Origin: Candidatus Parcubacteria bacterium
GTDB lineage: Bacteria; Patescibacteriota; Minisyncoccia; Phycocordibacterales; Zambryskibacteraceae
Length of the DNA: 54,810 bases
Assembly: GCA_019661785.1 (NCBI GenBank)
Contig: JAIFWP010000002.1
Coordinates: 105,059-159,868 of the forward strand
Direction of reading: 5' to 3'
Shown here: positions 2,247 through 17,763 of the stretch, piece after piece
Numbering within the stretch: the stretch's first letter is position 1
Layout: each line of letters begins with the position of its first letter
The notes under the pieces: model-generated
What the model was told of the DNA's origin: nothing
Database searches by the model: none
The model's input: the letters and a program-made list of their open reading frames with translations, nothing else
Program-made: the position numbers and the translations under genes

Positions 2247-2255
2247 TGTTATAAT
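2247..2255 (+). promoter_or_regulatory. Extended -10 box (TGtTATAAT) 6 nt upstream of the ATG at 2262; putative leaderless promoter
   Basis: The motif and its spacing were read directly from the sequence. Confidence 0.5.
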
Positions 2256-2261
2256 TTTGAT

Positions 2262-2744
2262 ATGAAGCTCCTCGCTACTCTTGTATTGCTCCTACTCATG
2301 TTCATAGGCGCATGGCTATACCTGCGTGAAGGGGATAAGACTACTGTAGTGCAGACCGCCGTGATCGGCGGCGAGACGACAGAGACAAAGGTAGAGGTGA
2401 CGAAGACTGATATTACGCAAAACGGCCTAAGCTCTCTCCCTGTTGGCTTCCCAAGCGATATCCCTGTAGAGGTAAGCAATATCACTGAGAGCTACCGTGC
2501 AGCTTACCAAGGCAAGGGCTTAGTGCAGTACACCGTGAGCTATACCTCGGAGAAGTCTAGAGAATCACTGTGGAACTCCTACTCTGAGTTCATGAATAAG
2601 TCAGGGTACACCATAGACAAAGGCAGTTCCTCTAAGAGCCTTGGGCAGATATATGGGGTCAAGGGTATAGACTCACTCTCTATAATCATCTCGGTAAGGG
2701 GAGGGCTCTCGCTCGTGCAGATTAACCTTCTCGATAGGCAATAA
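2262..2744 (+). CDS. Membrane-anchored hypothetical protein (paralog of 2754-3260)
   Basis: 160 aa with an N-terminal hydrophobic helix. The C-terminal block YSEFMNKSGYTIDKG...ISV resembles YTDFLSERGYTILSTG...VSM of the next ORF. Confidence 0.6.
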   Translation: MKLLATLVLLLLMFIGAWLYLREGDKTTVVQTAVIGGETTETKVEVTKTDITQNGLSSLPVGFPSDIPVEVSNITESYRAAYQGKGLVQYTVSYTSEKSRESLWNSYSEFMNKSGYTIDKGSSSKSLGQIYGVKGIDSLSIIISVRGGLSLVQINLLDRQ

Positions 2745-2753
2745 CGAGTAGAG

Positions 2754-3260
2754 ATGGCTGAGAAACAAACACAGAGCAACAATCTGGCCCCTCTCCTCAT
2801 AATCCTCGCTGTCCTCATAGTGGCGGTAGGCTGGAACTGGATAAGAGATACCCTCTGGTCGCGCCTAGCTTGGAACTACGGTCCCGTGCCATCGAACTTC
2901 GTGCTTGAGGCGAGCGCTAGCCCTGGGCAGGCAGTATCCGGCTTCCCCAAGGAGCTCATAGGTTTGGCCACTGATGTGAGGATTAAGAGCTCGGCCAAGT
3001 ACAGAGTTACAGAAACCTCAAGTCAGGCCGAAGTGCTCACTCTCACCTATGAGACAGGTGCGCGCATACCGGAGCTCTTTGCCGCTTATACTGACTTTTT
3101 ATCGGAGAGGGGATACACCATCCTCTCGACGGGCTCTAAGGGAGGGGTCGCGAGCGTGAATGCCGCTATGGGGAAGACGCTCATCACGGTGAGCATGTAT
3201 GTCTCGAGCCTTGGCAAGAGCGATGTGCGAGTAGACGTGAGGAAACCAGTGGTACAATAA
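2754..3260 (+). CDS. Membrane-anchored hypothetical protein (paralog of 2262-2744)
   Basis: 168 aa with an N-terminal TM helix (LAPLLIILAVLIVAVGW). It shares its C-terminal domain with the upstream ORF. Confidence 0.6.
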   Translation: MAEKQTQSNNLAPLLIILAVLIVAVGWNWIRDTLWSRLAWNYGPVPSNFVLEASASPGQAVSGFPKELIGLATDVRIKSSAKYRVTETSSQAEVLTLTYETGARIPELFAAYTDFLSERGYTILSTGSKGGVASVNAAMGKTLITVSMYVSSLGKSDVRVDVRKPVVQ

Positions 3261-3270
3261 ATAGATAATC

Positions 3271-4707
3271 ATGAACATGAAAAAAACAATAATCGCATCG
3301 AGTATCGCCCTCGCGTTAGCGGTCGGCGCAGGTAACCTCTACGCATGGTCCGAGCCAGGCAGCGTTCCTCCCGCTGGCAATGTGAATGCTCCGCTCCGCG
3401 GCTCGAACCTCACAAACCTCTTCCTCCCTTACTACAACTCGTCTCTGGGGGCCATGGTCAACTCAACTCTTACTAGCGACGGCTCTAGTGCTACTGCTAA
3501 TGGCAATTTGTTCACTACGGGTGCTCTCTACGCAGGCAATTCAGTCAGGTCTTGGAGGACAAGCAATGGGTCAGGTACTTTTTCCCTCGGCAATAGCGAC
3601 GTTTTATTGGAGAGCAGGACAAATACTGGAGATACAGGACAATTTATTCTAAAGAACTGGCAGGCAAATAGCGTTTATCATACAGCCCTGTACGCAGATG
3701 CTTATGGACATGTTGGAATCGGCACTGATAGCCCAAACGCCAGCTTGCAAATAGCCGGAGGCAACATTACTGATAGCGTTGGGACCGGGGCCATTCTTAG
3801 GGTAGGCGCCCTCTATATGGATGGTGATGAAATCAGCACCACGGGTAGCGACTTATATCTTGGTAATACGGGGAATGCCTTCAAGACTGTTCATATTGGA
3901 AATGGTGTCGATGTCTTCCAGAGCGGCAGGCTGAATGTTAATGGGGACATAAATATTAGCGGATGTTATAAGGTCAATGAAACATGCATCACCGCGGGCT
4001 CAGGCACTACTGGCCCCGCTGGCCCTCAGGGTCCCGCCGGCCCTACAGGCGCAACCGGAGCAACTGGAGCCACGGGTGCTACAGGAGCCACGGGTCCACA
4101 AGGCCCACAAGGTCCTCAGGGTCCCGAGGGGGCGTCGCCCTTCAGCTGGGATGGCTCGACAGCTTCTCTGGGTGGCAGAATGGTGGTTGGACAGGGAGTG
4201 AATATCGGTTCGGACCCGGCAATTTATGGTGTGGGAGCCTATGGAGATGGAGTTAGAGGTGATGCCAGTTCCGGTGGCCGGTCAGGGGTTTATGGAACGT
4301 CGGCTGCTTTTGGAGGGTATGGTGTGTACGGGGAGAATGGTAGTGGCGGTTACGGTATCTACTGTAATGGTGGAAGTTGTGGCGGTAACCGCGCTTGGAC
4401 GAACGCATCTGATGCAAGGCTTAAGCAAAACATAAGCACCATCTCTAGCGGGCTTGATAAGGTGATGCAACTGCGAGGAGTGAACTTTGAATTCAAAAAT
4501 GCCCCTGGTGTTAAGCATGTAGGCTTTATCGCTCAGGAGATTAAGAATGTTGTCCCAGAAGTAGTTACTGTGGACCCATCAACCGGATATTACTCTGTCG
4601 CAGAGAGCTCAGTTAATGCTGTCTTAGTTGAAGCAGTAAAAGAGCTAAAGAAACAAAACGACGACTTAAGAGCTCGCGTAGACGCACTGGAAGCAAAGAT
4701 AAAATAA
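3271..4707 (+). CDS. Secreted collagen-like triple-helix repeat protein with a C-terminal S74-type intramolecular chaperone (tail-fibre-like) domain
   Basis: 478 aa. It has a signal/anchor helix, 15 uninterrupted G-X-Y triplets and a Gly/Tyr-rich segment. The C-terminus reads SDARLK...GVNFEF...GFIAQEI...coiled coil, typical of self-cleaving phage tail-spike chaperone domains. Confidence 0.8.
   Translation: MNMKKTIIASSIALALAVGAGNLYAWSEPGSVPPAGNVNAPLRGSNLTNLFLPYYNSSLGAMVNSTLTSDGSSATANGNLFTTGALYAGNSVRSWRTSNGSGTFSLGNSDVLLESRTNTGDTGQFILKNWQANSVYHTALYADAYGHVGIGTDSPNASLQIAGGNITDSVGTGAILRVGALYMDGDEISTTGSDLYLGNTGNAFKTVHIGNGVDVFQSGRLNVNGDINISGCYKVNETCITAGSGTTGPAGPQGPAGPTGATGATGATGATGATGPQGPQGPQGPEGASPFSWDGSTASLGGRMVVGQGVNIGSDPAIYGVGAYGDGVRGDASSGGRSGVYGTSAAFGGYGVYGENGSGGYGIYCNGGSCGGNRAWTNASDARLKQNISTISSGLDKVMQLRGVNFEFKNAPGVKHVGFIAQEIKNVVPEVVTVDPSTGYYSVAESSVNAVLVEAVKELKKQNDDLRARVDALEAKIK
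4003..4137 (+). repeat. Collagen-like G-X-Y repeat tract (15 triplets: GTT GPA GPQ GPA GPT (GAT)x5 (GPQ)x3 GPE GAS)
   Basis: Read directly from the translation. At the nucleotide level it is a GGN-NCN-NCN 9-nt periodic repeat. Confidence 0.9.
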
Positions 4708-4708
4708 A

Positions 4709-6061
4709 ATGAAGAGACTACTCACAGCAGGCATCGCTCTCGCGGTTGTCCTAGTGGGTTTGTCTATGGTCTTGTTTGCATCGCCAACGAGGGCCTTGGC
4801 GGCAGCAATCGACTTGTCGGGCTACGCTTGGTCAGAGAACGTGGGATGGATAAGCTTCAAGGGGCCTACTTACGGAGTGACTTTGAGCAATACGACAGGA
4901 CTCTTCTCGGGCCATGCCTGGTCAGAGAATATCGGGTGGATATCCTTCCAACAGGCTGACGGCACTAGCTGTGGAGGCGGTGCCTTGATGAACCTGGCTA
5001 CTGGTGCTGTGAGCGGCTGGGCCAAGGTGCTTTCAACCGGAGCTTGCGTACACTTGGCAGGTACTGGATACGCTGTTGCATATACGAGCGCTACGAGCCG
5101 CTTCTCCGGCTACGCTTGGTCAGACACAGACGTAGGTTGGATACATTTTGCAGGGACTAATTACGCTGTCGTGACAGACTCTACTCTGACCTCTGACTCA
5201 ACTATCAATGTGACAGTGAGTCCGACGAGCGCCGGGTGGACCTTATATAAAGATGGAGTGCAGTTCGCCACAGGAGTAGGCAACGGCACAGCTACAGTCA
5301 CGCCAAGCGCCTCGGGCTCGTCTATTTCCATTACAGGAGGCAGCGTCGCGGGTTATGATTCTCCACCTGACTATACCAACTCGCAGGGAGGAGGCTCCTC
5401 TCTCACCTTGTTTGGCGGAGAGACCATAGGCTTCACCCTTACTTATACGCGCGCCTTTGACTACACGCTATCTAACGGCGGCACCGTCACGGTGGAAGAG
5501 GGAGGCACTAACCAGTTTGGCCAGGTGGTCATCCATGAGGCGCTCACGGGTACCTCAGGCGCCTCTCAAGCCGTGAGCTTGTCGGCTAGCGGCCAGCCAA
5601 GCGGCGTCAGCACCGCCTTCTCCACCTGTACCCCAGGCTCGAAGCCAAATTGCGACTCGACTCTGACTATAACTGTCGCCCCTACGACTAATCCCGGCAC
5701 TTATCCTGTCACTATTACAGGCTCGCCTCTTGGCAAGACCACGACCTTTAGCCTTATCATTAATGCCGCGTCCGGCATGTCGGTCACCTGCAGCCGCACT
5801 CCATCCTCGGCTCATGTGGGCGATACTGTCCACTGGTCCTCATCCGTCTCGCAGAATCCAGCCCACCCTCCATATACCTATCTCTGGTCAGGCACTAACA
5901 TCCCAAGCAATATTACGGATAGCGGCTTCGACATCGTGTACTCGACGACCGGCACCAAGACCGCAGATGTCACCGTGCGCGACTCGAAGGACAACATTTC
6001 GCACTGTATCCCTGCCGGTTCCATAAACATCGGCGTCAGCCCAATCTTTGAGGAGTTCTAG
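4709..6061 (+). CDS. Secreted repeat protein (G[YH]AWSxxxGWI[SH]F repeats plus Ig/PKD-like C-terminal region)
   Basis: 450 aa with an N-terminal helix. There are three clear copies: GYAWSENVGWISF, GHAWSENIGWISF and GYAWSDTDVGWIHF. The C-terminal YTYLWSG...DIVYSTTGTKTADVTVRDSKDN is PKD-like. Confidence 0.7.
   Translation: MKRLLTAGIALAVVLVGLSMVLFASPTRALAAAIDLSGYAWSENVGWISFKGPTYGVTLSNTTGLFSGHAWSENIGWISFQQADGTSCGGGALMNLATGAVSGWAKVLSTGACVHLAGTGYAVAYTSATSRFSGYAWSDTDVGWIHFAGTNYAVVTDSTLTSDSTINVTVSPTSAGWTLYKDGVQFATGVGNGTATVTPSASGSSISITGGSVAGYDSPPDYTNSQGGGSSLTLFGGETIGFTLTYTRAFDYTLSNGGTVTVEEGGTNQFGQVVIHEALTGTSGASQAVSLSASGQPSGVSTAFSTCTPGSKPNCDSTLTITVAPTTNPGTYPVTITGSPLGKTTTFSLIINAASGMSVTCSRTPSSAHVGDTVHWSSSVSQNPAHPPYTYLWSGTNIPSNITDSGFDIVYSTTGTKTADVTVRDSKDNISHCIPAGSINIGVSPIFEEF
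4820..5149 (+). repeat. Three protein-level repeats of the G(Y/H)AWSxxxGWI(S/H)F motif
   Basis: The repeats are at aa 38-50, 68-80 and 134-147 of the ORF, with a degenerate SGWAKV copy between them. Confidence 0.75.
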
Positions 6062-6064
6062 GCG

Positions 6065-6073
6065 TGCTAAAAT
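6065..6073 (+). promoter_or_regulatory. Extended -10 box (TGcTAAAAT) 6 nt upstream of the pilB ATG at 6080; putative leaderless promoter
   Basis: The motif and its spacing were read directly from the sequence. Confidence 0.45.
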
Positions 6074-6079
6074 GTTTTC

Positions 6080-7819
6080 ATGCACATTGACGAGACTCAG
6101 CTTAAGAAGTTCCTACTCGACGCGGGACTTGTCTCGAAGAAAGACTTAGACGATGTCGCCTCCTATGCAGCGGAGAAGGGAATCGCTCTTGGCAAAGTCC
6201 TCGTTACAAGAGGAGTGCTCACAGAAGACGAGTATCGACGCACAGAGGGCTACATTCTTGGAGTGGCCTTCGTTGATTTGAAGAATCAGAAGCTCGACCT
6301 CGACGTCCTCTCTCTCATACCTGAGCCCATCGCTCGCAATCACAATATCGTCGCCTTCAAGAAGACTCCCGACACTCTCGAGGTAGCGATGCTCGACACT
6401 GAAGACCTCACGGCTATCGATTTCGTCGGTAAGTCTGTAGGGTTGAAGATTGTCCCGCGCCTTACTGATAACGAGTCCATGAAGTGGGCCCTCATGTCGT
6501 ATCAAAAGAGCCTGCAAGACGAGTTCGGCAGCGTCATCGAGAAGGAGGCCGGAGCGCTAAAGCCTATAAAAGGCGGAGTAGAAGAGGAAGGGGACCTTAA
6601 GAAGCTCGCTGAAGACGTGCCTGTAGTGCGTATCGTCGATACACTACTCAAGCACGCTATAGTCCAAGGCGCGTCTGACATACATATAGAGCCGCAGGAT
6701 GCTGAGGTCCTCGTGAGATACCGCATCGATGGCATACTCCACGATGCTATGGTCTTGCCGAAGACGACCGCTCCCGGCATTACCGCCAGAGTCAAAGTTC
6801 TCTCAAGCCTTAAGCTCGATGAGAAGCGCTTACCCCAGGATGGCCGCTTCAAGATAGAGCTCGATGGCGAGAAGGTTTCCTTCCGCGTCTCTACTTTGCC
6901 TACTTACTATGGTGAGAAGACGGTTATGAGGATTTTACGCGAGAATGCTTACGGCTTCACTCTCGAGTCTCTCGGCTTCCACGGACAAGCGCTCGAGGTA
7001 GTGCACGAGAGCTTGAAGCTCACTTCCGGCATGCTCCTCAACTGCGGTCCGACAGGTAGCGGCAAGACCACAACTCTCTATACTCTCCTAGATATATTGA
7101 ACACGCCGAGCGTAAATATCTCTACCATCGAGGACCCTATCGAGTATCAGATGAAGAGAGTGAACCAGACTCAAGTGAGACCGGAGATTGGCTTCTCCTT
7201 CGCGCAAGGATTGCGCACGCTAGTCCGCCAAGACCCAGACATCATCATGGTGGGGGAGATCCGTGATACTGAGACGGCAGCGCTAGCGGTGAACGCGGCT
7301 TTGACGGGGCACTTGGTGCTCTCCACTTTGCATACTAATTCAGCAGCCGGGGCCATCCCACGACTTCTTGATATGAAGCTAGAGCCCTTCCTACTCACTT
7401 CGACTTTAGACGCTGTCATGGGACAGCGCTTGGTGAGGAAGCTCGGTACGAATAAGGAGAGATATCTCCTTAACAAAGAAGAAATCAACTCGCTCGGACA
7501 CTTGGTATCTCTAGATAGGATGCTCGCTCTGCTCAAGGCGGAGAACTTGGTTGAGAAGGCCGCAACCTGGGAGCGAGTGCCGTTCTGGAAGGCTAAGGCC
7601 ACAGCAGATGGCGACGGTTATCAAGGCAGAATAGGTTTATATGAAGTGTTGAAGGTCTCGCCTGCAGTGAAGGCCCTTATACTCCGAGGTGCGACACAGC
7701 AAGACATCGAGGAGCAAGGCAAGAAGGAGGGGATGATTACCATGCTCGAGGATGGAGTCTTCAAGGCAGTGCAGGGCATCACCTCGATAGAGGAGGTCTT
7801 AAGAGTGGTATCCGAATAA
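6080..7819 (+). CDS. pilB: Type IV pilus / type II secretion assembly ATPase (PilB/GspE family)
   Basis: 579 aa. It has an N-terminal GSPII_E_N-like region, Walker A GPTGSGKTTT, an Asp box and Walker B IMVGEIRD, and a His box TGHLVLSTLHTN. Confidence 0.92.
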   Translation: MHIDETQLKKFLLDAGLVSKKDLDDVASYAAEKGIALGKVLVTRGVLTEDEYRRTEGYILGVAFVDLKNQKLDLDVLSLIPEPIARNHNIVAFKKTPDTLEVAMLDTEDLTAIDFVGKSVGLKIVPRLTDNESMKWALMSYQKSLQDEFGSVIEKEAGALKPIKGGVEEEGDLKKLAEDVPVVRIVDTLLKHAIVQGASDIHIEPQDAEVLVRYRIDGILHDAMVLPKTTAPGITARVKVLSSLKLDEKRLPQDGRFKIELDGEKVSFRVSTLPTYYGEKTVMRILRENAYGFTLESLGFHGQALEVVHESLKLTSGMLLNCGPTGSGKTTTLYTLLDILNTPSVNISTIEDPIEYQMKRVNQTQVRPEIGFSFAQGLRTLVRQDPDIIMVGEIRDTETAALAVNAALTGHLVLSTLHTNSAAGAIPRLLDMKLEPFLLTSTLDAVMGQRLVRKLGTNKERYLLNKEEINSLGHLVSLDRMLALLKAENLVEKAATWERVPFWKAKATADGDGYQGRIGLYEVLKVSPAVKALILRGATQQDIEEQGKKEGMITMLEDGVFKAVQGITSIEEVLRVVSE

Positions 7820-7830
7820 TTATTGGAACA

Positions 7831-9033
7831 ATGAAGTACGCCTTTACAGCTAAAAACAGAGAGGGAGTAGTCTACAGCGCCGAGGAGGATGCTAAGGACA
7901 AGCTCGAGCTATATGCCAAGGTGCGGAGCGAGGGGGGCTCGATACTCACTGCCAAAGAGGTGAAGGAGGGCAAGAGCCTGGTGAGCCTCTCCTTCGACCG
8001 AGTGAATACGCGCGATAAAATAGTCTTCGCCAAGAATCTATCGTCCATGCTTGCTGCCGGCCTTTCTCTCCCCAGAGCCATGAACGTCATGGAGAGAGAG
8101 TCGAGCAAGTCCTCAATGCAGAAGTTCCTGCGCTCTCTCTCGGCTGACGTGAGCAAGGGCGAGCCGCTATCGACCTCTCTTGCTAAGCAGGGCAAGGTTT
8201 CAAGCCTCTTCGTCTCGATGGTCAAAGCTGGCGAAGAGTCAGGCAACCTCTCAGGCTCTCTCATAGTCGTCGCTCGCGAGATGGAGAAGTCCTACACTCT
8301 CACGAGGAGAGTGCAGAGCGCGATGATATACCCCGTCATCATCGTGTGCCTCATGATAGTCATAGCGGTACTCCTCCTTATATATATGGTGCCAACGCTC
8401 ACCTCAACCTTCCAAGGCCTTAATATCACCCTGCCTCTCTCGACGAGGGTCATCATTGCAACATCTAGTTTCCTTGTAACGCATACTCTCCTCGCGCTCT
8501 CAACCCTTGCCCTCCTTGTGCTCGGCCTCGTGGCTATTGTGAAGAGCTCTCCTGGGAAAAAGGTTTTTGACACAGTTAATCTAAGACTGCCTCTCATAGG
8601 CACGCTTCTGCGTGAGATAGGCAGCGCCCGAACAGCGCGTACTCTCTCCTCTCTCTTATCGGCCGGAGTGACGGTAGACAATGCTCTTGATGTCACAGCA
8701 AACGTCCTACAGAACCACTTATATAAGAGAGCACTTCTAGATGCCCGCCTCTCGGTGCAGAAGGGTGAGCAGTTGTCCTCTGTCTTCAGCAAGTATCCGA
8801 GGCTCTATCCGCCATTTGTGAGCGAGATGTCGGCCGTAGGCGAGGAGACGGGCAAGCTAGCCGAGATGCTCGAGAATGTGGCTATATATTATGAAGAGGA
8901 TGTCGATAACAGGACCAAGGATCTCTCCTCGGTCATAGAACCTCTCCTCATGGTCGCGGTCGGCATAGCAGTGGGCATCTTCGCTGTCTCAATGCTCGCT
9001 CCGACCTACTCCTTGGTCAATCTCATTCAATAA
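7831..9033 (+). CDS. pilC: Type IV pilus platform protein (PilC/GspF family)
   Basis: 400 aa with a duplicated T2SSF domain pattern (LSSMLAAGLSL...; LSSLLSAGVTVDNAL...) and three TM segments. Confidence 0.9.
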   Translation: MKYAFTAKNREGVVYSAEEDAKDKLELYAKVRSEGGSILTAKEVKEGKSLVSLSFDRVNTRDKIVFAKNLSSMLAAGLSLPRAMNVMERESSKSSMQKFLRSLSADVSKGEPLSTSLAKQGKVSSLFVSMVKAGEESGNLSGSLIVVAREMEKSYTLTRRVQSAMIYPVIIVCLMIVIAVLLLIYMVPTLTSTFQGLNITLPLSTRVIIATSSFLVTHTLLALSTLALLVLGLVAIVKSSPGKKVFDTVNLRLPLIGTLLREIGSARTARTLSSLLSAGVTVDNALDVTANVLQNHLYKRALLDARLSVQKGEQLSSVFSKYPRLYPPFVSEMSAVGEETGKLAEMLENVAIYYEEDVDNRTKDLSSVIEPLLMVAVGIAVGIFAVSMLAPTYSLVNLIQ

Positions 9034-9419
9034 TGAGCATGCAAAATAGCAGAGGCTTCAACCTGGTGGAGGTCTTGGTAGCAGCTACCATCATCACGGT
9101 CTTCTTGGCAGCTCTCGTCGGCACAAGCAACCTCTACTTGCGAGCTTCGCGCACAAGTCCAGAGCGAGCTAAGGCTCTGTATCTGGCCGAAGAGGGGATA
9201 GAGAACCTTGTATACATGCGTGACCAGTCTTGGACCGCTTATATTGCTTCTGCGCCGACAGACTCCACCGAGAACATAGGCGCTTTCACACGGAGAACTG
9301 AGCTTGCGGGAGCGAGCAATCATACGAAGTCCGCTCGCGTCAGCGTATCTTGGCTCGATCACGATTCTATGGCGACTGTATCACTCACAGCTCTTATCTC
9401 GAACTTATATGACAATTAG
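9033..9419 (+). CDS. Prepilin-type N-terminal cleavage/methylation-domain protein (pseudopilin)
   Basis: 128 aa. MSMQNSRG|FNLVEVLVAATIITVFLAAL is a class-III signal with G-1 and E+5. The ATG overlaps the pilC stop. Confidence 0.8.
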   Translation: MSMQNSRGFNLVEVLVAATIITVFLAALVGTSNLYLRASRTSPERAKALYLAEEGIENLVYMRDQSWTAYIASAPTDSTENIGAFTRRTELAGASNHTKSARVSVSWLDHDSMATVSLTALISNLYDN

Positions 9420-9822
9420 ATATTTTTTAACAGCTCGCCGGAGAGGCTTCTCTCTAGTAGAGATAGTGGTCTACATAGCCATACTTACCTTCCTTAGCAT
9501 GATTATCATGAACACTTTCGCTACGGTGACTCATCTTGGCACTGTCGAGACAGGGCGAGAGAGCTCGACGCGTTCGGCCGTGGCCGTGCTCAACCGCTTG
9601 AGCCGCAGTATAAGGTCGGCAGGCAGCGCCTCGGTAGAGGGGGGCGAACTGCTTCTTGATGGCAATCCTGTGGATCTGAGCGCGTATCTCGAGGACGGGA
9701 TGACTCTCGATGGATTGTCATTTAATCTGACTTCCGGAAGCACTAGCGCACGAGTGCGTACATCCTTCACTCTCCATGGAGAGAGTTTCTACTCAACTTC
9801 GGTCTTAAGGCACAAACGATGA
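9409..9822 (+). CDS. Prepilin-type N-terminal cleavage/methylation-domain protein (pseudopilin)
   Basis: I chose the internal ATG at 9409 of ORF 9304-9822. It gives MTIRYFLTARRRG|FSLVEIVVYIAILTFL, a class-III signal. The upstream part of the ORF overlaps the previous gene. Confidence 0.72.
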   Translation: MTIRYFLTARRRGFSLVEIVVYIAILTFLSMIIMNTFATVTHLGTVETGRESSTRSAVAVLNRLSRSIRSAGSASVEGGELLLDGNPVDLSAYLEDGMTLDGLSFNLTSGSTSARVRTSFTLHGESFYSTSVLRHKR

Positions 9823-10211
9823 GCATCTCTACCAAACACAAGTTAGAGCAAGGGCAGGCCATGATTATGGCTACAGTCTTCTTCGTCTTTATATCTACGA
9901 CTGTTATCCTGGGTCTTGGCTCGATGATATCTAGCTCTCAAAGGCTTATATCGAAGTCGATACACTCTGAACAGGCTTACTACATCGCTGAAGCTGGGGC
10001 TGAAGAGACCGCTTATGCTCTCATGCATGGATTGCCGGCGGACACTCCCACGATAGAGAGCCAGTCTCCGGTAGTGGCAGTGGCTCCTGAGGGTGAGAAT
10101 ATGCGCATATCATCCACTGCCACTATTGATGATGTAGAGCGTACGGTAGAGATACTTCTCTATGCGAGCAGCACGGACTCTCGTATCCTAAGCTGGAAAG
10201 AAAGCCGCTAG
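9819..10211 (+). CDS. Pilus-associated hypothetical protein (PilX-like N-terminal hydrophobic segment without E+5)
   Basis: 130 aa with QGQAMIMATVFFVFISTTVILGL. Its start overlaps the previous stop, and it is the last gene of the same-strand pilus operon. Confidence 0.5.
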   Translation: MSISTKHKLEQGQAMIMATVFFVFISTTVILGLGSMISSSQRLISKSIHSEQAYYIAEAGAEETAYALMHGLPADTPTIESQSPVVAVAPEGENMRISSTATIDDVERTVEILLYASSTDSRILSWKESR

Positions 10212-10224
10212 CCCGGCGTCTGTG

Positions 10225-10233
10225 TGGTATATT
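10225..10233 (+). promoter_or_regulatory. Extended -10 box (TGgTATATT) 6 nt upstream of the tpiA ATG at 10240; putative leaderless promoter
   Basis: The motif and its spacing were read directly from the sequence. Confidence 0.45.
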
Positions 10234-10239
10234 ACAGCC

Positions 10240-10941
10240 ATGAAACTCATCCTTGTCGGGAATTGGAAGAACCACCCGAGTTCTATCAAAGAGGCATCCG
10301 CCCTTTTGAGCGGCCTAACGAAGAAAGCCAGAGTTTATAAGAAGCTCAGTACCTTCATCGCTCCTCCTACGACATACTTCGACCTAGTAGGGCAGAAGGC
10401 TAAGAGCATTGGCTCTCTCGCGGCCCAGGACATCTTCTTCACACCAGGAAGCGGGACATACACCGGAGTCGTGACGCCGGACATCCTGAAGAGCTTTGGC
10501 GTAAAGCTCGCCATTGTGGGACACAGCGAGCGCCGCAAGCTCGGTGAGACTAATCAAGTCGTAGCAGAGAAGGTCCAGACAGCTCTTGTCGCGGGCATCA
10601 TTCCCCTCATATGCATAGGCGAGGAGGTCCATGATTATGAGGGACATTACTTTGAGTTCCTAAGCGCGCAGCTCAAGGCTTCGCTCGACGGCATCCATCG
10701 ACGTTCGGACGCGGCCAAGCTCGCTATCGCTTATGAGCCAGTTTGGGCCATAGGCAAGAAGGCCAAGGATGCCATGCACCCCGCCGAGCTCGCCCAGATT
10801 GTCATATTCATAAAGAAAGTTCTGACTGAGATCTTCGGGCGAGAGGCGGCTGAGGGCATACCAGTGCTCTATGGCGGCTCTGTAGAGCCGGCAAACGCCA
10901 AAGAGCTTCTTAAGGGTTCTTGGCTGGACACGCATCTCTAG
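10240..10941 (+). CDS. tpiA: Triosephosphate isomerase, apparently frameshifted near 10916; the conserved C-terminus continues in another frame to 10985
   Basis: GNWKNH, IVGHSERR, AYEPVWAIG and YGGSV are TIM signatures. The in-frame tail reads ...ELLKGSWLDTHL*. The -1 frame from 10917 reads FLAGHASLDAKSFNAIAEALIA*, matching the canonical (V)GGASL C-terminus. Confidence 0.85.
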   Translation: MKLILVGNWKNHPSSIKEASALLSGLTKKARVYKKLSTFIAPPTTYFDLVGQKAKSIGSLAAQDIFFTPGSGTYTGVVTPDILKSFGVKLAIVGHSERRKLGETNQVVAEKVQTALVAGIIPLICIGEEVHDYEGHYFEFLSAQLKASLDGIHRRSDAAKLAIAYEPVWAIGKKAKDAMHPAELAQIVIFIKKVLTEIFGREAAEGIPVLYGGSVEPANAKELLKGSWLDTHL

Positions 10942-12812: not shown

Positions 12813-13144
12813 ATTTCCGGACCGTCGTCGCTTATCTTCTGCGGGATGAGATGGATGTGGACGTGTGGTATGTCTGTACCAACGATGCCTACTCTTACGA
12901 AATCACCTTCGTATTTATCCTTCAGCATTTTCGCTACACGTTTGACTGAGCGGAATACTTCGTCCGAAAGTTCATCCGGCATATCGATAAACCATCGGTG
13001 ATGGGTTTTAGGAATGAGAAGCGTATGTCCCGGAGCTTTGGGATGAATATCAAGAAATGCGACGGTGTGTTCATCTTCATGAATGATTTCCGAAGGAATC
13101 TCTTTGTTCGCGATTTTGCAGAATAAGCAGTCAGGATCTCTCAT
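12809..13144 (-). CDS. HIT-family (histidine triad) protein
   Basis: 111 aa. CLFCKI..., HPKAPGHTLLIPK and the histidine triad HVHIHLIP. Confidence 0.88.
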   Translation of the reverse strand: MRDPDCLFCKIANKEIPSEIIHEDEHTVAFLDIHPKAPGHTLLIPKTHHRWFIDMPDELSDEVFRSVKRVAKMLKDKYEGDFVRVGIVGTDIPHVHIHLIPQKISDDGPEI

Positions 13145-14127
13145 TAATATGATGTTTTAGCCACTAAGCGCCCTTCTCTGTCGTATAGGGAGATAATCTC
13201 GTGCGAGGTTGCCCACATCTCCCAGGGCTTAGACAAGTAGACGTACCAAGTACTGCCTTGGAAGTTATTGTCTCCGGCATGATAGTCGAGACAAGCAGGG
13301 TAGTTCATGCGGGCTTTGATGAAGGCTATGCAAGCTCCGGACAACCCAGCAGAGTCGTCTACTGTTGGTCCAAGCTTGGCATCGTCTTTAAATACAGGCT
13401 TGTGACACGAGCGCATGCCAGCCAGGTAGTCCTGACAGGCTATGTCGAGCCCTTGTACCCCAGACTCTTTAGACGGGGCCGGACAAGAGCGGGCCAAGCC
13501 TGAAGGGAAGCGGTAGCTCTCAGCGAAGTAGCCTGTGCACTTGTTCTCCTTGAAGCTCACAAGCTGGTAGGGGCTTATATTGCCTGGGCTGCCGCTCATA
13601 ACAACGGCTGTCTCTCCAGGTTTGAGCACAATATCACTTAGCGGGCTTTGCCCAGAAGCAGCTACGATATAGGCTCCTTGTGGTATCAAGGCTGAGTCTG
13701 AAGGATAGTAGACCTCGTTATTGCCGACAGCATAAGCTCGAGAGCTCTTGCCGTTCTCGAGCTTGTATCCGGTCAGGTCAACCGAGCTCCCGCCGCCGTT
13801 TTGTATAGTTATGTACTCCTCGCTAGGCTGGTATGTATAAGCGGCATTCCCTGTACCTAGGGAAAGGGAGCTTGCCACAACCGTGCTTGTAGTTTTTACG
13901 CCAGATAGCTTAGTTCCCGTTGTGGCCTTTGTGCCGCTGGCCTGCTTGGCGCCTGTGCCCGACACAGTAGGGCCTACTGCGCTCGTAGATGAGCTATTAG
14001 TGAAGGGCGAGAAGCCGAAGAGGCTCCCTCTGAAGACTCCGGGCACTACAAGTACGAAGATAACTACCGATATGGCAACGAGGATGAGGAGCCATTCGAC
14101 GAAGTTTCCTCCGGTTAATTTCTTCAT
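13144..14127 (-). CDS. Membrane-anchored secreted protein with a possible lamin-tail-domain (LTD)-like segment
   Basis: 327 aa with an N-terminal TM helix and a Ser/Thr/Gly linker. EYITIQNGGGSSVDLTGYKLENG resembles the LTD core. The C-terminal region is Cys-rich. Confidence 0.5.
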   Translation of the reverse strand: MKKLTGGNFVEWLLILVAISVVIFVLVVPGVFRGSLFGFSPFTNSSSTSAVGPTVSGTGAKQASGTKATTGTKLSGVKTTSTVVASSLSLGTGNAAYTYQPSEEYITIQNGGGSSVDLTGYKLENGKSSRAYAVGNNEVYYPSDSALIPQGAYIVAASGQSPLSDIVLKPGETAVVMSGSPGNISPYQLVSFKENKCTGYFAESYRFPSGLARSCPAPSKESGVQGLDIACQDYLAGMRSCHKPVFKDDAKLGPTVDDSAGLSGACIAFIKARMNYPACLDYHAGDNNFQGSTWYVYLSKPWEMWATSHEIISLYDREGRLVAKTSY

Positions 14128-15780
14128 ATGACGCTTGTATTATACAATACTCCGATGCTAGTTCGTGAAATTTTAGATAATCTCCTCCGCGAGAGGGGAG
14201 TCTCGCCGGAACTTGAACAAGATTTCCTCTACCCTGTATATGAAAAGCTCCATGACCCACTCCTCTTGCCAGATATGGAGCAAGCCAGAGACAGAGTCAT
14301 AGAGGCGATGCAAAATGCGGAGCCTATAATGGTTTTCTCCGACTATGATGCCGATGGCATACCTGGTGCGGTCGTCATGAAGGACTTCTTCAGACGGGCA
14401 AAGTACGATAAGGTCACCTTTTACATTCCTCACCGACACGATGAGGGTTTCGGCCTTAATATGGAGGCTATCGACGAAGCCAAGGAGCGCGGCGCCAAGC
14501 TCCTCATCACCGTAGACTGCGGTACGGCTGACATAGAGGAGGTTGCCCATGCCAACTCGCTTGGTTTGGACGTCATCATCACCGACCACCATGAGAGCAA
14601 TGAGTTGCCGAAAGCTCACTCGGTGGTGAATCCGAAAGTTAAACACTCGAAGTATCCCTTCAAAGAGCTTTGTGGAGCCGGGCTCGCCTACAAACTGGTG
14701 CAGGCAATACTCGCCAAAGAGCGATTTGGCACCAAAGAAGGCATGGAGAAGTGGTCTCTCGACATGGTAGCCATAGCTACGCTCTCCGACATGGTGCCTC
14801 TCGTCGGCGAGAACAGGATTTTCGCCAAGTACGGGCTCGATGTCTTGAGGAAATCTCCTCGCCCTGGCCTCCAAGCTCTGTGTAGGAAGCTAGGCATGGA
14901 CCAGCGCTTTATAAACGAGGACGATATCGCCTTCATGATTACTCCTCGCATCAATGCAGCCTCGCGCATGGGCGTGCCGGAGGACGCTTTCAAGCTCCTC
15001 GCGACGGCAGACCTGCGCGAGGCTGACGCTCTTGCTCTCCACTTGGAGCAGATTAATAACGAGAGGAAGGTCTTGGTAGCAACTATTGTCAAAGACGCCA
15101 AAAAGCACTTGAAGCAGAGGGGTGAGCTGCCCGCAGTCATCGTCATCGGCAATCCTGAGTGGCGTCCAGCCATCCTTGGCCTCGTCGCTAACTCGCTTGT
15201 CGAGGAGTACTCGCGCCCGGCCTTCGTTTGGGGACGCGACGGCGACAATATGCTCAAGGGCTCATGCCGTTCGTATAACGGTTATGACCTATTTGAGCTC
15301 ATGAGTGCGGCCAAAGAGTGCTTTGTTGAATTTGGCGGGCATGCGGGAGCGGGGGGATTCTCCATGACGCTTGAGAGTTTGCAAACTTTAGAAGAGAGAC
15401 TTTCAGAATGCCTCTCTAGTTTAGTAGAAGGAGATAAGGAAGCTGAGAGTACCGGTATAGAAATCCAACTCAAAGAGATATGCGAAGATCTTTGGCAGAC
15501 CCTCTCTCTTGTTGCGCCCTTCGGCACAGGCAATCCAAAACCTATTTTCAAAATTAAATCTGAAATCAAAGACGTGCGCCAGTTTGGCAAGGCCCAAGAC
15601 CATCTTGAGCTCATACTGAAGCCCAATACCAAGGCTGTATCCTTCTTCTCGACGCCTAAGAGCTATGGCCTAGAACTTAAGCCAGAGTCGAACGTCAATC
15701 TCCACGTCCACCTCGAAAAATCCTATTTTAGAAATCGCCCCGAACTGCGCTTGAGGATTGTTGATATACTAGCGGCATGA
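14128..15780 (+). CDS. recJ: Single-stranded-DNA-specific exonuclease RecJ (DHH/DHHA1)
   Basis: Motifs: SDYDADGI, DCG, ITDHH and GGHAGAGG. The true start may be the ATG at 14155, which lies 6 nt downstream of TACAAT at 14143-14148. Confidence 0.88.
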   Translation: MTLVLYNTPMLVREILDNLLRERGVSPELEQDFLYPVYEKLHDPLLLPDMEQARDRVIEAMQNAEPIMVFSDYDADGIPGAVVMKDFFRRAKYDKVTFYIPHRHDEGFGLNMEAIDEAKERGAKLLITVDCGTADIEEVAHANSLGLDVIITDHHESNELPKAHSVVNPKVKHSKYPFKELCGAGLAYKLVQAILAKERFGTKEGMEKWSLDMVAIATLSDMVPLVGENRIFAKYGLDVLRKSPRPGLQALCRKLGMDQRFINEDDIAFMITPRINAASRMGVPEDAFKLLATADLREADALALHLEQINNERKVLVATIVKDAKKHLKQRGELPAVIVIGNPEWRPAILGLVANSLVEEYSRPAFVWGRDGDNMLKGSCRSYNGYDLFELMSAAKECFVEFGGHAGAGGFSMTLESLQTLEERLSECLSSLVEGDKEAESTGIEIQLKEICEDLWQTLSLVAPFGTGNPKPIFKIKSEIKDVRQFGKAQDHLELILKPNTKAVSFFSTPKSYGLELKPESNVNLHVHLEKSYFRNRPELRLRIVDILAA

Positions 15781-16259
15781 TAACTATCTTTACTGACGGG
15801 TCGTCGAAGGGCAATCCTGGGCCAGGGGGCTTTGCAGCTATTATCTCTGACGGTCTTATGGTGCGCGAGGTAGGCGGGAGCGAGAAGCATACTACAAACA
15901 ATCGGATGGAACTCAAGGCGGCCATTCGCGCCCTTGAGTCTCTAGAGCCAACGAACGACACTATATATATCCACACAGATTCGCAGTACGTGATGAAGGG
16001 CATAACCGAGTGGATACATGGCTGGCTCGCCAAAGGCTGGAAGACGGCTCAGAAGAAGCCAGTAGAGAACCAGGACCTCTGGCAAGTTTTATATAAGAAC
16101 ACTGAGGGCAAGAACATAGAGTGGAAGCATGTTGCCGGCCATGCTGGCGTAGCTGCCAACGAGCGCTGCGACGAGATAGCCCAAGGTTTCGCCGACGGAG
16201 TGGATGTAGACTTATATGATGGACCGCTCGCCCAGTACAGAGTCAGTCTTGAGGCGTAA
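15777..16259 (+). CDS. rnhA: Ribonuclease HI
   Basis: 160 aa. TDGSSKGNPGPGGFA, NNRMELKA, TDSQYV and GHAG...NERCDE are the DEDD catalytic blocks. Confidence 0.9.
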   Translation: MITIFTDGSSKGNPGPGGFAAIISDGLMVREVGGSEKHTTNNRMELKAAIRALESLEPTNDTIYIHTDSQYVMKGITEWIHGWLAKGWKTAQKKPVENQDLWQVLYKNTEGKNIEWKHVAGHAGVAANERCDEIAQGFADGVDVDLYDGPLAQYRVSLEA

Positions 16260-17763
16260 CCGATTTATATACTCAGGGCTCTGGGGTTTTATCCTGGGGG
16301 TCCTCTTAGCTTCCTTATTCCAAATACCGCCCCTGGCTTGCGTGCTGGCTATAGCAGTCGCGTTCGTAGCCTATTTTGCAGAGAGACATGCCATTATTTT
16401 GATTTTCCTTTGTGCTTTGGCTCTTGGCGCACTGCGTTTTGATGTGAAAGACTTCCATGAGCTCTTGCCTATGGAGAGTACTGGCATGGTGGCGAGCGAG
16501 CCGGAGCACAGAGACATGGATACCAGGTTCGTCTTCGAGAGCGACAACGGAGAGAGAGCGCTTGTCTCGACGGATTTATTAAGCGGAGTGCAGTATGGCG
16601 ACAGGGTAGAGGTGAGTGCCAACTTCAAAGTCCCGGGAGTCATAGTCGACGAGACGGGACGGAGCTTCGACTACGGGGCGTATCTGTCTAAAGATGATAT
16701 TTATTACACAGCCAACTTTGCTAAAGTAGCTCAAATCGCCGAGAGCCCGTCGTCTGCTCACGGTCAGGCATCGGTAGATTCGCGACCGACGGGCTCTCGG
16801 CTTATTTCGGGGTTGCTCAAGGTTAAGAATTCTTTTGTTGAGAAGATGAGGCAGATTTTGCCTGAGCCGGAGTCCTCTCTATTGGCTGGGCTTATCGTTG
16901 CGGGGAAGCAGGCCTTGCCTAAGTCGATACTAGATGAGTTCCGCCGTGCTGGAGTGGTGCATATCGTAGTCTTGTCGGGCTACAACCTGACTGTCATCTC
17001 TGAGTTCTTGCTAGTCCTACTGGCCTTCCTTGGCAAACGCAGGTCGGCTCTCGTCTCGGCGGTTGCCATAGTAGCCTTCACCTTGATGACTGGGGCTACA
17101 GCTACCGTAGTCAGAGCCGCCATTATGATACTCCTCGTCCTCTTGGGCCGGATTATCGCTCGGCCTGGCTCCTCGCCGCGCATACTCCTATTCACGGGAG
17201 TCGTCATGCTTCTAGAGAACCCTAAGGAACTCGTCTTCGATCCATCCTTCCAGCTCACTTTTCTTGCTATGCTAGCGCTGATTTATACCGTACCGATATT
17301 CGAGAGATTTTTAACTAAAATCCCTGAGAAGTTCGGTTTACGTACGCTTCTCGCTACTACCCTAGGCGTACAAGTAGTTGTTTTGCCTTACATCTTGTAC
17401 AACATGGGCAATTTCTCGACTGTCTTCCTGCTCTCGAACCTTCTTATACTTTTCGTAGTGCCATTTACCATGCTCATCGGCTTTGCTGCAACCATACTGG
17501 CCTATGTTTCAGGCATTATTGCTTGGCCACTAGCTTTTATATCGCACCTTCTGCTCTCCTGGATTCTGTTTGTAGCAGGTTTCTTGGGTAATTTGAAATG
17601 GGCCAGTATCCAAATACAGAGTTTCCCGCTTTGGTTGACTCTTCTTATATATGTAGTGCTGGGGACGCTGATTTTTGCAAAAGAAGAAGCGCGAGAACTA
17701 GTCTCGCGCTTCCGGAGTCACTGGCCGAAGAAGACAATCGTATCACCGCGGAGCTCCGCATGA
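16216..17763 (+). CDS. comEC: ComEC/Rec2-family DNA-uptake channel protein (competence domain only, no MBL domain)
   Basis: 515 aa. An N-terminal OB-like part is followed by a polytopic competence domain (LLAGLIVAGKQALP..., VVHIVVLSGYNLTV). The start is uncertain because it overlaps rnhA by 44 nt. Confidence 0.8.
   Translation: MMDRSPSTESVLRRNRFIYSGLWGFILGVLLASLFQIPPLACVLAIAVAFVAYFAERHAIILIFLCALALGALRFDVKDFHELLPMESTGMVASEPEHRDMDTRFVFESDNGERALVSTDLLSGVQYGDRVEVSANFKVPGVIVDETGRSFDYGAYLSKDDIYYTANFAKVAQIAESPSSAHGQASVDSRPTGSRLISGLLKVKNSFVEKMRQILPEPESSLLAGLIVAGKQALPKSILDEFRRAGVVHIVVLSGYNLTVISEFLLVLLAFLGKRRSALVSAVAIVAFTLMTGATATVVRAAIMILLVLLGRIIARPGSSPRILLFTGVVMLLENPKELVFDPSFQLTFLAMLALIYTVPIFERFLTKIPEKFGLRTLLATTLGVQVVVLPYILYNMGNFSTVFLLSNLLILFVVPFTMLIGFAATILAYVSGIIAWPLAFISHLLLSWILFVAGFLGNLKWASIQIQSFPLWLTLLIYVVLGTLIFAKEEARELVSRFRSHWPKKTIVSPRSSA
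17686..17712 (-). terminator. Perfect 11-bp hairpin (GAAGCGCGAGA/TCTCGCGCTTC) with a U-tract on the minus strand; terminator of ORF 17718-18098, embedded in the comEC 3' coding region
   Basis: The palindrome was read directly. On the minus strand it is followed by TTCTTTTGCAAAAAT. Confidence 0.6.

Follow-up and report, generated by a model that had tools for sequence, protein, structure and literature searches.

The forward-strand type IV pilus genes near the start of a 54,810-nt window of a Candidatus Parcubacteria (Paceibacteria) genome (GenBank assembly GCA_019661785.1, contig JAIFWP010000002.1, here C6, positions 105059 to 159868; genome size 545 kb, 95% complete) appear to encode an accessory pilus module. 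The reading for which the chances seem about even is that this module uses parts shared with the main pilus cluster of the same genome and presents a cassette of Sec-exported, PilY1-like adhesins, namely the trimeric-fibre protein P0001 and the protein P0002, which combines GW repeats with immunoglobulin (Ig)-like domains. The genes for these two proteins lie directly upstream of the gene for the assembly ATPase of the module, PilB2. In all, the run comprises seven codirectional open reading frames (ORFs) between positions 3271 and 10211, separated in the ORF listing by spacers of -11 to +18 nt, and each of the seven tightly spaced genes described in a first-pass annotation, made from the sequence alone, was recovered. 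That annotation had the run begin at 3271; the fibre gene does start there, but the conserved block begins at position 2262 and takes in two further genes, up1 and up2, which code for paralogous membrane proteins (Table 1). Gene products were annotated with Pfam and NCBIfam models, and folds were assigned using AlphaFold2 (AF2) models and Foldseek searches.

PilB2 aligns with the T2SSE family (PF00437) from end to end (E 3e-118, model positions 3 to 370 of 370) and carries an intact Walker A motif, GPTGSGKT, at residue 323; its score against the PilB model TIGR02538 is 502 bits, under the equivalog cut-off of 675. The gene for the platform protein PilC2 and three pilin genes follow. The PilV/GspI-like protein P0005 and the PilW/GspJ-like protein have class III signal motifs with Gly at position -1 and Glu at position +5, whereas the truncated PilX/GspK-like protein lacks such a motif. 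The latter is 46% identical over 72 amino acids (aa) to the 439-aa PilX-like proteins of related genomes and retains the N-terminal helix, the core, and a C-terminal strand ending in SWKE that resembles theirs. The Pfam and NCBIfam results agree with the earlier calls of PilB, PilC, two class III signal pilins, and a PilX-like protein, the PilX_N match of the last being weak. In relatives, the corresponding set consists of a GspH-like pilin of ~150 aa (GspH match, E 0.002), a PilV-like pilin of ~160 aa, a PilW-like pilin of ~172 aa, and a PilX-like protein of 392 to 609 aa. The GspH-like pilin is not present in the module of the window genome; its PilV-like pilin has an internal in-frame deletion of ~30 residues compared with orthologs of 157 to 166 aa, its PilW-like pilin an in-frame deletion of ~38 residues compared with orthologs of 171 to 177 aa, and its PilX-like protein is devoid of the 260- to 480-residue beta-helix-like domain.

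As the first-pass annotation had noted, neither the module nor the rest of the window encodes a major pilin, PilD, PilM, PilN, PilO, or PilT, and whole-genome scans place all of these outside. A full main pilus cluster is located 64 kb downstream (C6:174.6-187.5 kb), in the order PilM ... PilN, PilO, PilB1, response regulator, PilT, PilC1, PilA, PilD, and four minor pilins, with PilT, PilD, PilM, PilN, and PilO each represented in the genome by one copy in or beside this cluster. There are three PilB paralogs (PilB1, PilB2, and the orphan PilB3), ~37% identical to one another, and two PilC genes. Because PilD, PilM/N/O, PilT, and PilA are encoded only elsewhere, the accessory module is not self-sufficient. 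The proposal of a dedicated apparatus is thus to be kept in so far as the module is a genuine one of the type IV pilus type, but not in the sense of a self-contained machine, as single-copy parts encoded elsewhere need to be shared. No secretin (PF00263) is found in the 95%-complete genome, and the PilY1 domain PF05567 has no match anywhere in it. A second PilA paralog, MLKPKARGKSRG/FTLIELLVV..., is encoded on contig C4 at ~73.9 kb, remote from both pilus clusters, and is a candidate for the major subunit of the accessory module. The zinc-binding tetracysteine (CxxC...CxxC) is kept in PilB3, reduced to two Cys residues in PilB1, and has no Cys left in PilB2.

The first protein of the putative cassette, P0001, consists of a Sec signal peptide (aa 1 to 25), a conserved mature N terminus, WSEPGSVPPAGNVNAPL (aa 26 to 42), a beta-rich region, a collagen stretch of 15 GXY triplets (aa 245 to 289; Pfam Collagen at aa 245 to 288, E 2e-6), a Gly-rich region, a Peptidase_S74 domain (PF13884, aa 380 to 432, E 2.7e-17), and a C-terminal coiled coil. 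With its Ser/Lys cleavage motif in place (WTNA/SDARLKQNI, containing SDARLK), the S74 chaperone is expected to be released by self-cleavage once what is predicted to be a trimer has folded. The domains of the collagen-like fibre with a phage-type chaperone that had been described at first pass are therefore present, but the collagen part is not conserved: syntenic orthologs retain the N-terminal motif and the S74 end and have a variable middle. Collagen was rejected as the defining feature of the fibre because the GXY stretch is missing from these orthologs. A prophage origin was rejected as well, since the matches to phage are limited to the S74 chaperone (only aa 376 to 478 resemble phage tail-fibre C termini, with 46 to 47% identity), the protein has a signal peptide, and its gene has stable cellular neighbours: synteny is kept in seven species, and phage genes are absent from the surroundings. 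Nor is P0001 an adhesin of the streptococcal Scl1/Scl2 type: it scores 26 bits against NF038329 (cut-off 325), lacks LPXTG, and has just the 15 triplets. The collagen-plus-S74 architecture is common in bacteria. The NCBI name for fibres with a C-terminal S74 chaperone of the endosialidase type is "tail fiber domain-containing protein." P0001 carries the sole S74 domain of its genome. In four relatives (G001:C8, G011:C1, G039:C5, and G016:C6), an S74 domain also ends giant ORFs of 1,958 to 6,513 aa, so that, judging from these sequences, trimeric surface fibres that cleave themselves seem to be common in the genus and to differ greatly in size.

The start codon of the second gene, P0002, lies 1 nt past the stop codon of the fibre gene, and the two are taken to be translationally coupled. 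Its product contains three G(Y/H)AWSExxGWI(S/H)F repeats and matches no Pfam family. In the AF2 model (pLDDT 85), a GW beta module at aa 33 to 156 (positions 4805 to 5176) is followed by three Ig-like domains (aa 164 to 442), and the chain ends in an invariant P-x-F-x-E-F-COOH (positions 6041 to 6058). Foldseek searches of PDB and BFVD retrieved nothing more specific than generic adhesion molecules with tandem Ig domains, as these domains dominate the whole-chain search. Of the earlier description of a secreted GW-repeat/PKD protein, the repeats and the Sec signal stand; the PKD assignment rests solely on the Ig-like folds and on PKD matches of homologs.

Orthologs of PilB2 were counted in 40 relatives, and 34 loci were annotated for gene order. 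Full-length orthologs with 62 to 80% identity are present in 28 of the 40 genomes; three others have split or partial PilB2, one (G002) has a divergent copy with 47% identity, and eight have none. The PilB2 orthologs nearly always precede PilC2 and three or four pilins of the GspH/I/J/K types, and the recurrent order, found across the family and partly across the order, is xth (reverse strand), up1, (up2), [fibre], Ig protein, PilB2, PilC2, three or four pilins, tpiA, and pgk. The Ig-protein gene precedes pilB2 in most same-family genomes that carry the latter, and the protein encoded directly 5' of pilB2 always shares the C-terminal 200 to 300 residues of P0002, including the PxFxEF end; the proteins at this position range from 450 to 1,467 aa and are variable at the N terminus. 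The fibre is found at the site only in seven same-genus genomes, in which the Ig protein bears the GW module. Within the family, the fibre accompanies the GW module in 8 of 8 loci (in one case on a separate contig) and is seen in none of the at least 10 loci without the module. Synteny with pilBC, put forward at first pass as a check, is accordingly observed, for the Ig protein across the family and for the fibre in the seven same-genus genomes. The up1 gene is kept at the same position in the same-family loci examined, and up2 is present together with the fibre in the same-genus loci L019 to L022, L039, and L040. Sister species form a loss series that runs from the full set through PilB2-PilC2 and a divergent PilB2 to nothing, the PxFxEF Ig protein being kept throughout.

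Beyond the family, the GW module was detected at no fewer than 551 loci in the genome collection and, when 300 genomes of the class were sampled, in 110 of them (~37%). Neighbourhoods were compared at 75 distant loci, 47 of which had at least 7 kb of downstream sequence. A PilB2-type ATPase with 55 to 68% identity is encoded 1 to 8 kb downstream on the same strand in 11 of these 47, a count that partly reflects the same ancient synteny, as tpiA and pgk often follow. At five distant loci (L072, L124, L125, L104, and L100), the GW gene is located in or beside another pilus cluster (Table 1). At L100, the GW module is part of a pilin: P0268 starts with the pilin signal MRG/FTLLE (N_methyl match), has a head homologous to the GspH-like pilin of the PilB2 clusters (E 5e-7), and continues with an Ig domain homologous to those of P0002 (E 5e-7), a fibronectin type III (FN3) domain, and, at the C terminus, a GW module that shares 40% identity with the one in P0002 (E 1e-26). 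Two more full-length pilin::GW fusions, P0037 and P0320, came from a search of 1.8 billion representative proteins, bringing the total to three; the output was dominated by FN3-repeat giants, and only the full-length rows were used. The fusions and the GW genes in the five distant lineages are independent of local synteny and link the GW module to pili more strongly than it does. P0313 and other proteins of 1,080 to 2,024 aa combine the same GspH-like pilin head with long FN3 arrays and Cys-rich C-terminal modules, which suggests that bacteria of the candidate phyla radiation (CPR) have a family of giant modular pilins. The fibre motif and the GW module also tend to occur together: for 32 of the 75 GW genes, a protein bearing the P...PPxGNVxAP(L/I) motif is encoded no more than two genes away on the same strand, compared with 43 motif-bearing ORFs among 1,340 overall, mostly those GW neighbours. 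In the window genome, the N-terminal fibre motif and the GW repeat are confined to the P0001 and P0002 genes, respectively.

To build a filament, the module would have to rely on the single-copy PilD and PilM/N/O together with either of the two PilA paralogs, and the product would probably be a second, nonretractile pilus comparable to the second type IV pilus (T4P-2) of Saccharibacteria. The PilV-like, PilW-like, and truncated PilX-like proteins would be its dedicated priming or tip minor pilins. The conserved fibre N terminus (WSEP...PPxGNVxAPL) is the likely attachment end of P0001, while the C-terminal Ig region of P0002, with its P-x-F-x-E-F end, is proposed to dock onto the tip pilins, which would leave the N-terminal GW module exposed in the manner of PilY1. 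The ligand of this module could be a host glycan, as for lectin-like tip pilins, or else the N-terminal peptide of the fibre.

PilY1 of the Pseudomonas and Myxococcus type IVa pili is a tip adhesin that is exported by Sec, is not itself a pilin, and shares an operon with the minor pilins FimU-PilVWX. P0002 resembles it in being a Sec-exported non-pilin encoded beside minor pilins of the GspH/I/J/K types and in combining a conserved C terminus with a variable N terminus; at L072, the GW gene lies between PilD and four minor pilins, a pilY1-type position. The analogy is only functional, as P0002 has Ig-like domains and no beta-propeller.

T4P-2 of Nanosynbacter lyticus TM7x (Saccharibacteria) is reported to be a PilT-less pilus that binds the host via the tip pilin PilX2 (Grossman et al. 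2025, PMC12206443; bioRxiv 10.64898/2026.10.06.756255). The likeness extends to the occurrence in CPR bacteria, to the second PilB/PilC pair without a retraction ATPase besides a PilT-bearing main cluster, and to the possession of its own minor pilins, including a PilX-like one, with a large extra domain in the relatives of the window genome; TM7x PilX1 and PilX2 are reported to lack the class III motif, like the PilX-like protein of the window. In contrast to the window cluster, TM7x locus 2 has PilM2/N2/O2 and the major pilin PilA2, for which the cluster has no counterparts and the genome offers a single PilM, PilN, and PilO. PilX here lacks the large domain, and the two systems are likened by gene content, not by PilB2 orthology. 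Finally, the candidate adhesins of the window (the fibre and the GW/Ig protein) are separate Sec-exported proteins, of a kind not described for TM7x.

Streptococcus sanguinis PilB is a modular minor pilin with an adhesive vWA module (bioRxiv 10.1101/2021.01.27.428410). P0268, P0037, and P0320 are built along similar lines, as a pilin head with grafted Ig/FN3 and GW modules; the GW protein of the window differs in not being a pilin, and the GW module belongs to no described family. P0001, for its part, shares with S74-bearing phage fibres and tailspikes the SDxRxK motif, the coiled coil, a conserved attachment end, and variable middle and distal parts. It differs from them in having a Sec signal and being chromosomally encoded, and the PPxGNVxAPL motif is common to many Parcubacteria proteins without S74 domains.

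A bolder, and unlikely, extension of the accessory-module reading is plug-in host recognition, whereby the GW module, carried either by a GspH-like pilin or by the Ig protein, would dock the WTEP...PPxGNVxAPL peptide of the fibres. If so, swapping of the variable distal fibre part would alter host specificity, as it does in phage tail-fibre swaps, and the N-motif fibre and the GW protein would represent a class-wide adhesin-docking pair that follows the cohesin-dockerin logic.

To our knowledge, mechanistic work on host attachment has been limited to Saccharibacteria, in which the tip pilins of the pilus are the adhesins. Paceibacteria/Parcubacteria are very abundant and form the largest CPR class. 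A second pilus in a CPR bacterium is already known; the satellite architecture and the class-wide fibre/GW cassette were not found described in the searchable literature, and searches for publications on the GW motif or on a fibre-pilus link in Parcubacteria returned nothing. On the sequence evidence, the cassette is a good candidate for the host-attachment gear of Paceibacteria. The satellite PilB2/PilC2/minor-pilin module, the Pfam-less GW module, and the N-motif fibre partner family are all candidates amenable to testing. Should the link to the pilus hold, host range might become predictable from genomes by way of the variable fibre and GW proteins. The stepwise losses among relatives would reveal to what extent the second pilus is dispensable.

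The arrangement of promoters bears on this link. As stated at first pass, pilB2 has a leaderless-type -10 box of its own, TGcTAAAAT, and an extended -10 box (TGnTAAAAT, TGnTAGAAT, or TGaTAAGAT) is kept 3 to 8 nt before the start in 9 of 11 relatives. Given this conserved promoter, the genes for the fibre and the GW protein probably belong to a separate unit with up1 and up2, for which the TATAAT box ahead of up1 is a candidate leaderless promoter; the corresponding site of relatives L019 to L022 reads TGcTATAAT or TGnTATACT. No convincing intrinsic terminator was found between 2262 and 10941, where terminator-like and promoter sites are no commoner than in shuffled sequence, and none of the terminator-like sites lies on the forward strand between 5404 and 9770. 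Because these scans perform no better than on shuffled sequence, the promoter argument rests on conservation. Three transcription units are likely, namely up1-up2-fibre-GW, pilB2-pilC2-three pilins, and tpiA, between which read-through may occur.

Several observations weigh against an accessory pilus that presents the cassette. The loci of related genomes are non-independent samples, and synteny alone is uninformative, because the housekeeping genes xth, tpiA, and pgk are equally syntenic. The accessory module is often lost in relatives. G004 (locus L044, 100% complete) has the PxFxEF Ig protein followed by tpiA, PilB2/PilC2 being gone; G001 (L043) has up1 and the Ig protein in another context, without PilB2/PilC2; G030 (L046) has PilB2-PilC2 directly before tpiA, with no pilins; and G002 (L042) has nothing of the module but the divergent PilB2. 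Since G004 and G001 keep the Ig protein, it is not strictly dependent on the PilB2/PilC2 motor. The window copy of the module is itself reduced, having neither a GspH-like pilin nor the large domain of PilX, and some of its function may be lost. With a conserved promoter in front of pilB2, the two units may be regulated apart. P0001 and P0002 carry signals of the Sec type, not of the pilin type, and their contact with pilins is putative. GW genes are only modestly enriched within or next to main pilus clusters (5 of 75 versus roughly 2 to 3% expected).

The separate promoter of pilB2, the persistence of the Ig protein in G004 and G001, the equal synteny of xth, tpiA, and pgk, the Sec-type signal peptides, and the majority of GW loci (about 50 of 75) with no pilus gene in the available sequence would also fit an arrangement in which the genes are neighbours only: the fibre, GW/Ig, and up1/up2 genes would form an autonomous Sec-dependent adhesin unit that stands beside pilB2 by frozen gene order, perhaps occupying a variable "surface-protein slot" and anchored to the cell body via up1/up2. 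Such an arrangement appears somewhat unlikely, given the pilin::GW fusions in three representative clusters, the GW genes in or beside the main pilus clusters of other lineages, and the lack of a recognisable wall or membrane anchor in either P0001 or P0002.

It is quite improbable that the module is a decaying remnant that builds nothing in the window genome and leaves only the fibre/GW unit functional. The missing GspH-like pilin, the shortening of two pilins by 30 to 38 residues, the loss of the large PilX domain, and the presence of every stage of loss among relatives (G030, G002, G004, and G001) are what such decay would produce, but the five ORFs are intact and tightly packed behind an intact promoter motif, PilB2 has kept its full T2SSE domain and its Walker A motif, the class III signals retain G-1 and E+5, and the deletions are in frame with the C-terminal strands preserved.

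An accessory pilus also has to be set against a pseudopilus of the kind seen in ComG and type II secretion systems (T2SS), which likewise combines an ATPase, a platform protein, and small class III pilins in an operon without PilT. In a T2SS-like version, the pseudopilus would act as a piston that pushes the folded fibre and the GW/Ig protein through the wall and S-layer, with PxFxEF as the recognition signal. The GspH/I/J/K-type minor pilins, the absence of a major pilin and PilT from the cluster, the Sec signals of the putative substrates encoded immediately upstream, and the conserved extreme C terminus of the Ig protein are in line with this version, as is the fact that the GspE and GspF models score about as well on PilB2 and PilC2 as the PilB and PilC models do. 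Those scores are nevertheless below the cut-offs (503.7 versus 630 for GspE, TIGR02533; 284.4 versus 424 for GspF, TIGR02120), the cluster has no major pseudopilin, no secretin was found in the genome, and G004 and G001 keep the Ig protein in the absence of the motor; moreover, the pilin::GW fusions favour pilus display over secretion. We know of no secretin-free T2SS in monoderm-like cells, and a secretion piston is regarded here as very unlikely.

ComEC (PF03772, E 2e-44) was indeed found ~6 kb downstream of the module, at positions 16216 to 17763, and an involvement in DNA uptake had been suggested on that account; the link proves weak, with ComG scores below the cut-offs and several genes in between. 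A ComG-like DNA-uptake pseudopilus working with ComEC, with the fibre and GW genes unrelated to it, has little probability in spite of the comGA-GG-like order of ATPase, platform, and small pilins, the matches to the ComGA, ComGB, and ComGE models, and the downstream ComEC, RecJ, and RNase H, because all of these matches are under the cut-offs (NF041000, 246.7 bits versus 300, E 2e-73; NF041012, 145.6 versus 240, E 2e-42; and ComGE, 19.9 versus 49, E 6e-4), the ComGA model reaches half the score of the PilB and GspE models on PilB2, ComEC is separated from the module by tpiA (which has a promoter of its own), by an ORFan cassette with a terminal terminator-like hairpin, and by pgk, HIT, and the gene for a lamin-tail-domain (LTD) protein, and T4P-2 of TM7x is reported to be dispensable for competence (PMC12206443).

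Table 1. Features of the accessory pilus locus, main-cluster components, and pilus-associated GW loci of distant lineages (coordinates refer to the window unless prefixed by C6)
Feature	Coordinates	Strand	Description
TATAAT -10 box	2250-2255	+	6 nt 5' of up1 ATG
up1	2262-2744	+	Bitopic membrane protein; transmembrane (TM) helix and ~110-aa alpha/beta domain; paralog of up2
up2	2754-3260	+	TM helix and same domain as up1, with which it aligns
P0001	3271-4707	+	Trimeric-fibre protein, 478 aa, secreted; Collagen and Peptidase_S74
P0002	4709-6061	+	GW/Ig protein, 450 aa, Sec signal peptide; GW repeats, AF2
Extended -10 box TGcTAAAAT	6065-6073	+	6 nt 5' of pilB2 ATG
PilB2	6080-7819	+	Assembly ATPase, 579 aa; T2SSE, MshEN N-domain, Walker A
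PilC2	7831-9033	+	Platform protein, 400 aa; two T2SSF domains (PF00482), E 1.5e-57
P0005	9033-9419	+	PilV/GspI-like minor pilin, 128 aa; MSMQNSRG/FNLVE; N_methyl, E 3e-5
PilW/GspJ-like minor pilin	9409-9822	+	137 aa; RRRG/FSLVE; N_methyl, E 6e-6
PilX/GspK-like pilin, truncated	9819-10211	+	130 aa; weak PilX_N match, E 0.058
PilB3	C6:61565-63340		Orphan PilB paralog
PilB1	C6:179681-181411		PilB paralog
PilT	C6:181820-182881		Main cluster; only copy
PilA paralog	C6:184095-184544		Main cluster
PilD	C6:184529-185266		Main cluster; single copy
L072			Nealsonbacteria, complete genome: PilM-N-O, PilB1, REC, PilT, PilC1, PilA, PilA, PilD, GW (1,211 aa), four minor pilins
L124			PilC1, PPGGN-motif collagen protein, GW, PilD
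L125			PilD, AWTEP-motif protein, GW
L104			PilD, three pilins, two small ORFs, S74 fibre with N-motif, GW
L100			Harrisonbacteria: PilB, PilC, then pilin::GW fusion P0268

The up1 and up2 proteins were considered as hidden counterparts of PilN and PilO and rejected, as they have no sequence match in Pfam or PDB; a search with the AF2 model (pLDDT 84) likewise retrieved no PilN, PilO, GspL, or GspM, its best Foldseek E value being 0.013. The weak PDB matches of the up1 model (E of 0.013 or above) are to CalU16, LpqN, DcrB, and TiME. No match to up1 was found in the copy of Pfam that was searched; its homologs carry a precomputed PF27226 tag.

The longest ORF of tpiA, at 10222 to 10941, begins with a GTG codon at 10222 and has an in-frame ATG at 10240, and an extended -10 box, TGgTATATT (hexamer TATATT at 10228 to 10233), is located 6 nt 5' of this ATG. 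Because this leaderless design matches those of pilB2 and up1, the ATG at 10240 is probably the actual start codon of tpiA, and the gene probably has a promoter of its own. Farther downstream, the region from 13144 to 17763 codes for the secreted LTD protein on the reverse strand and then for RecJ, RNase H, and ComEC on the forward strand, a DNA-processing neighbourhood whose relevance to DNA uptake may exceed that of the pilus module.

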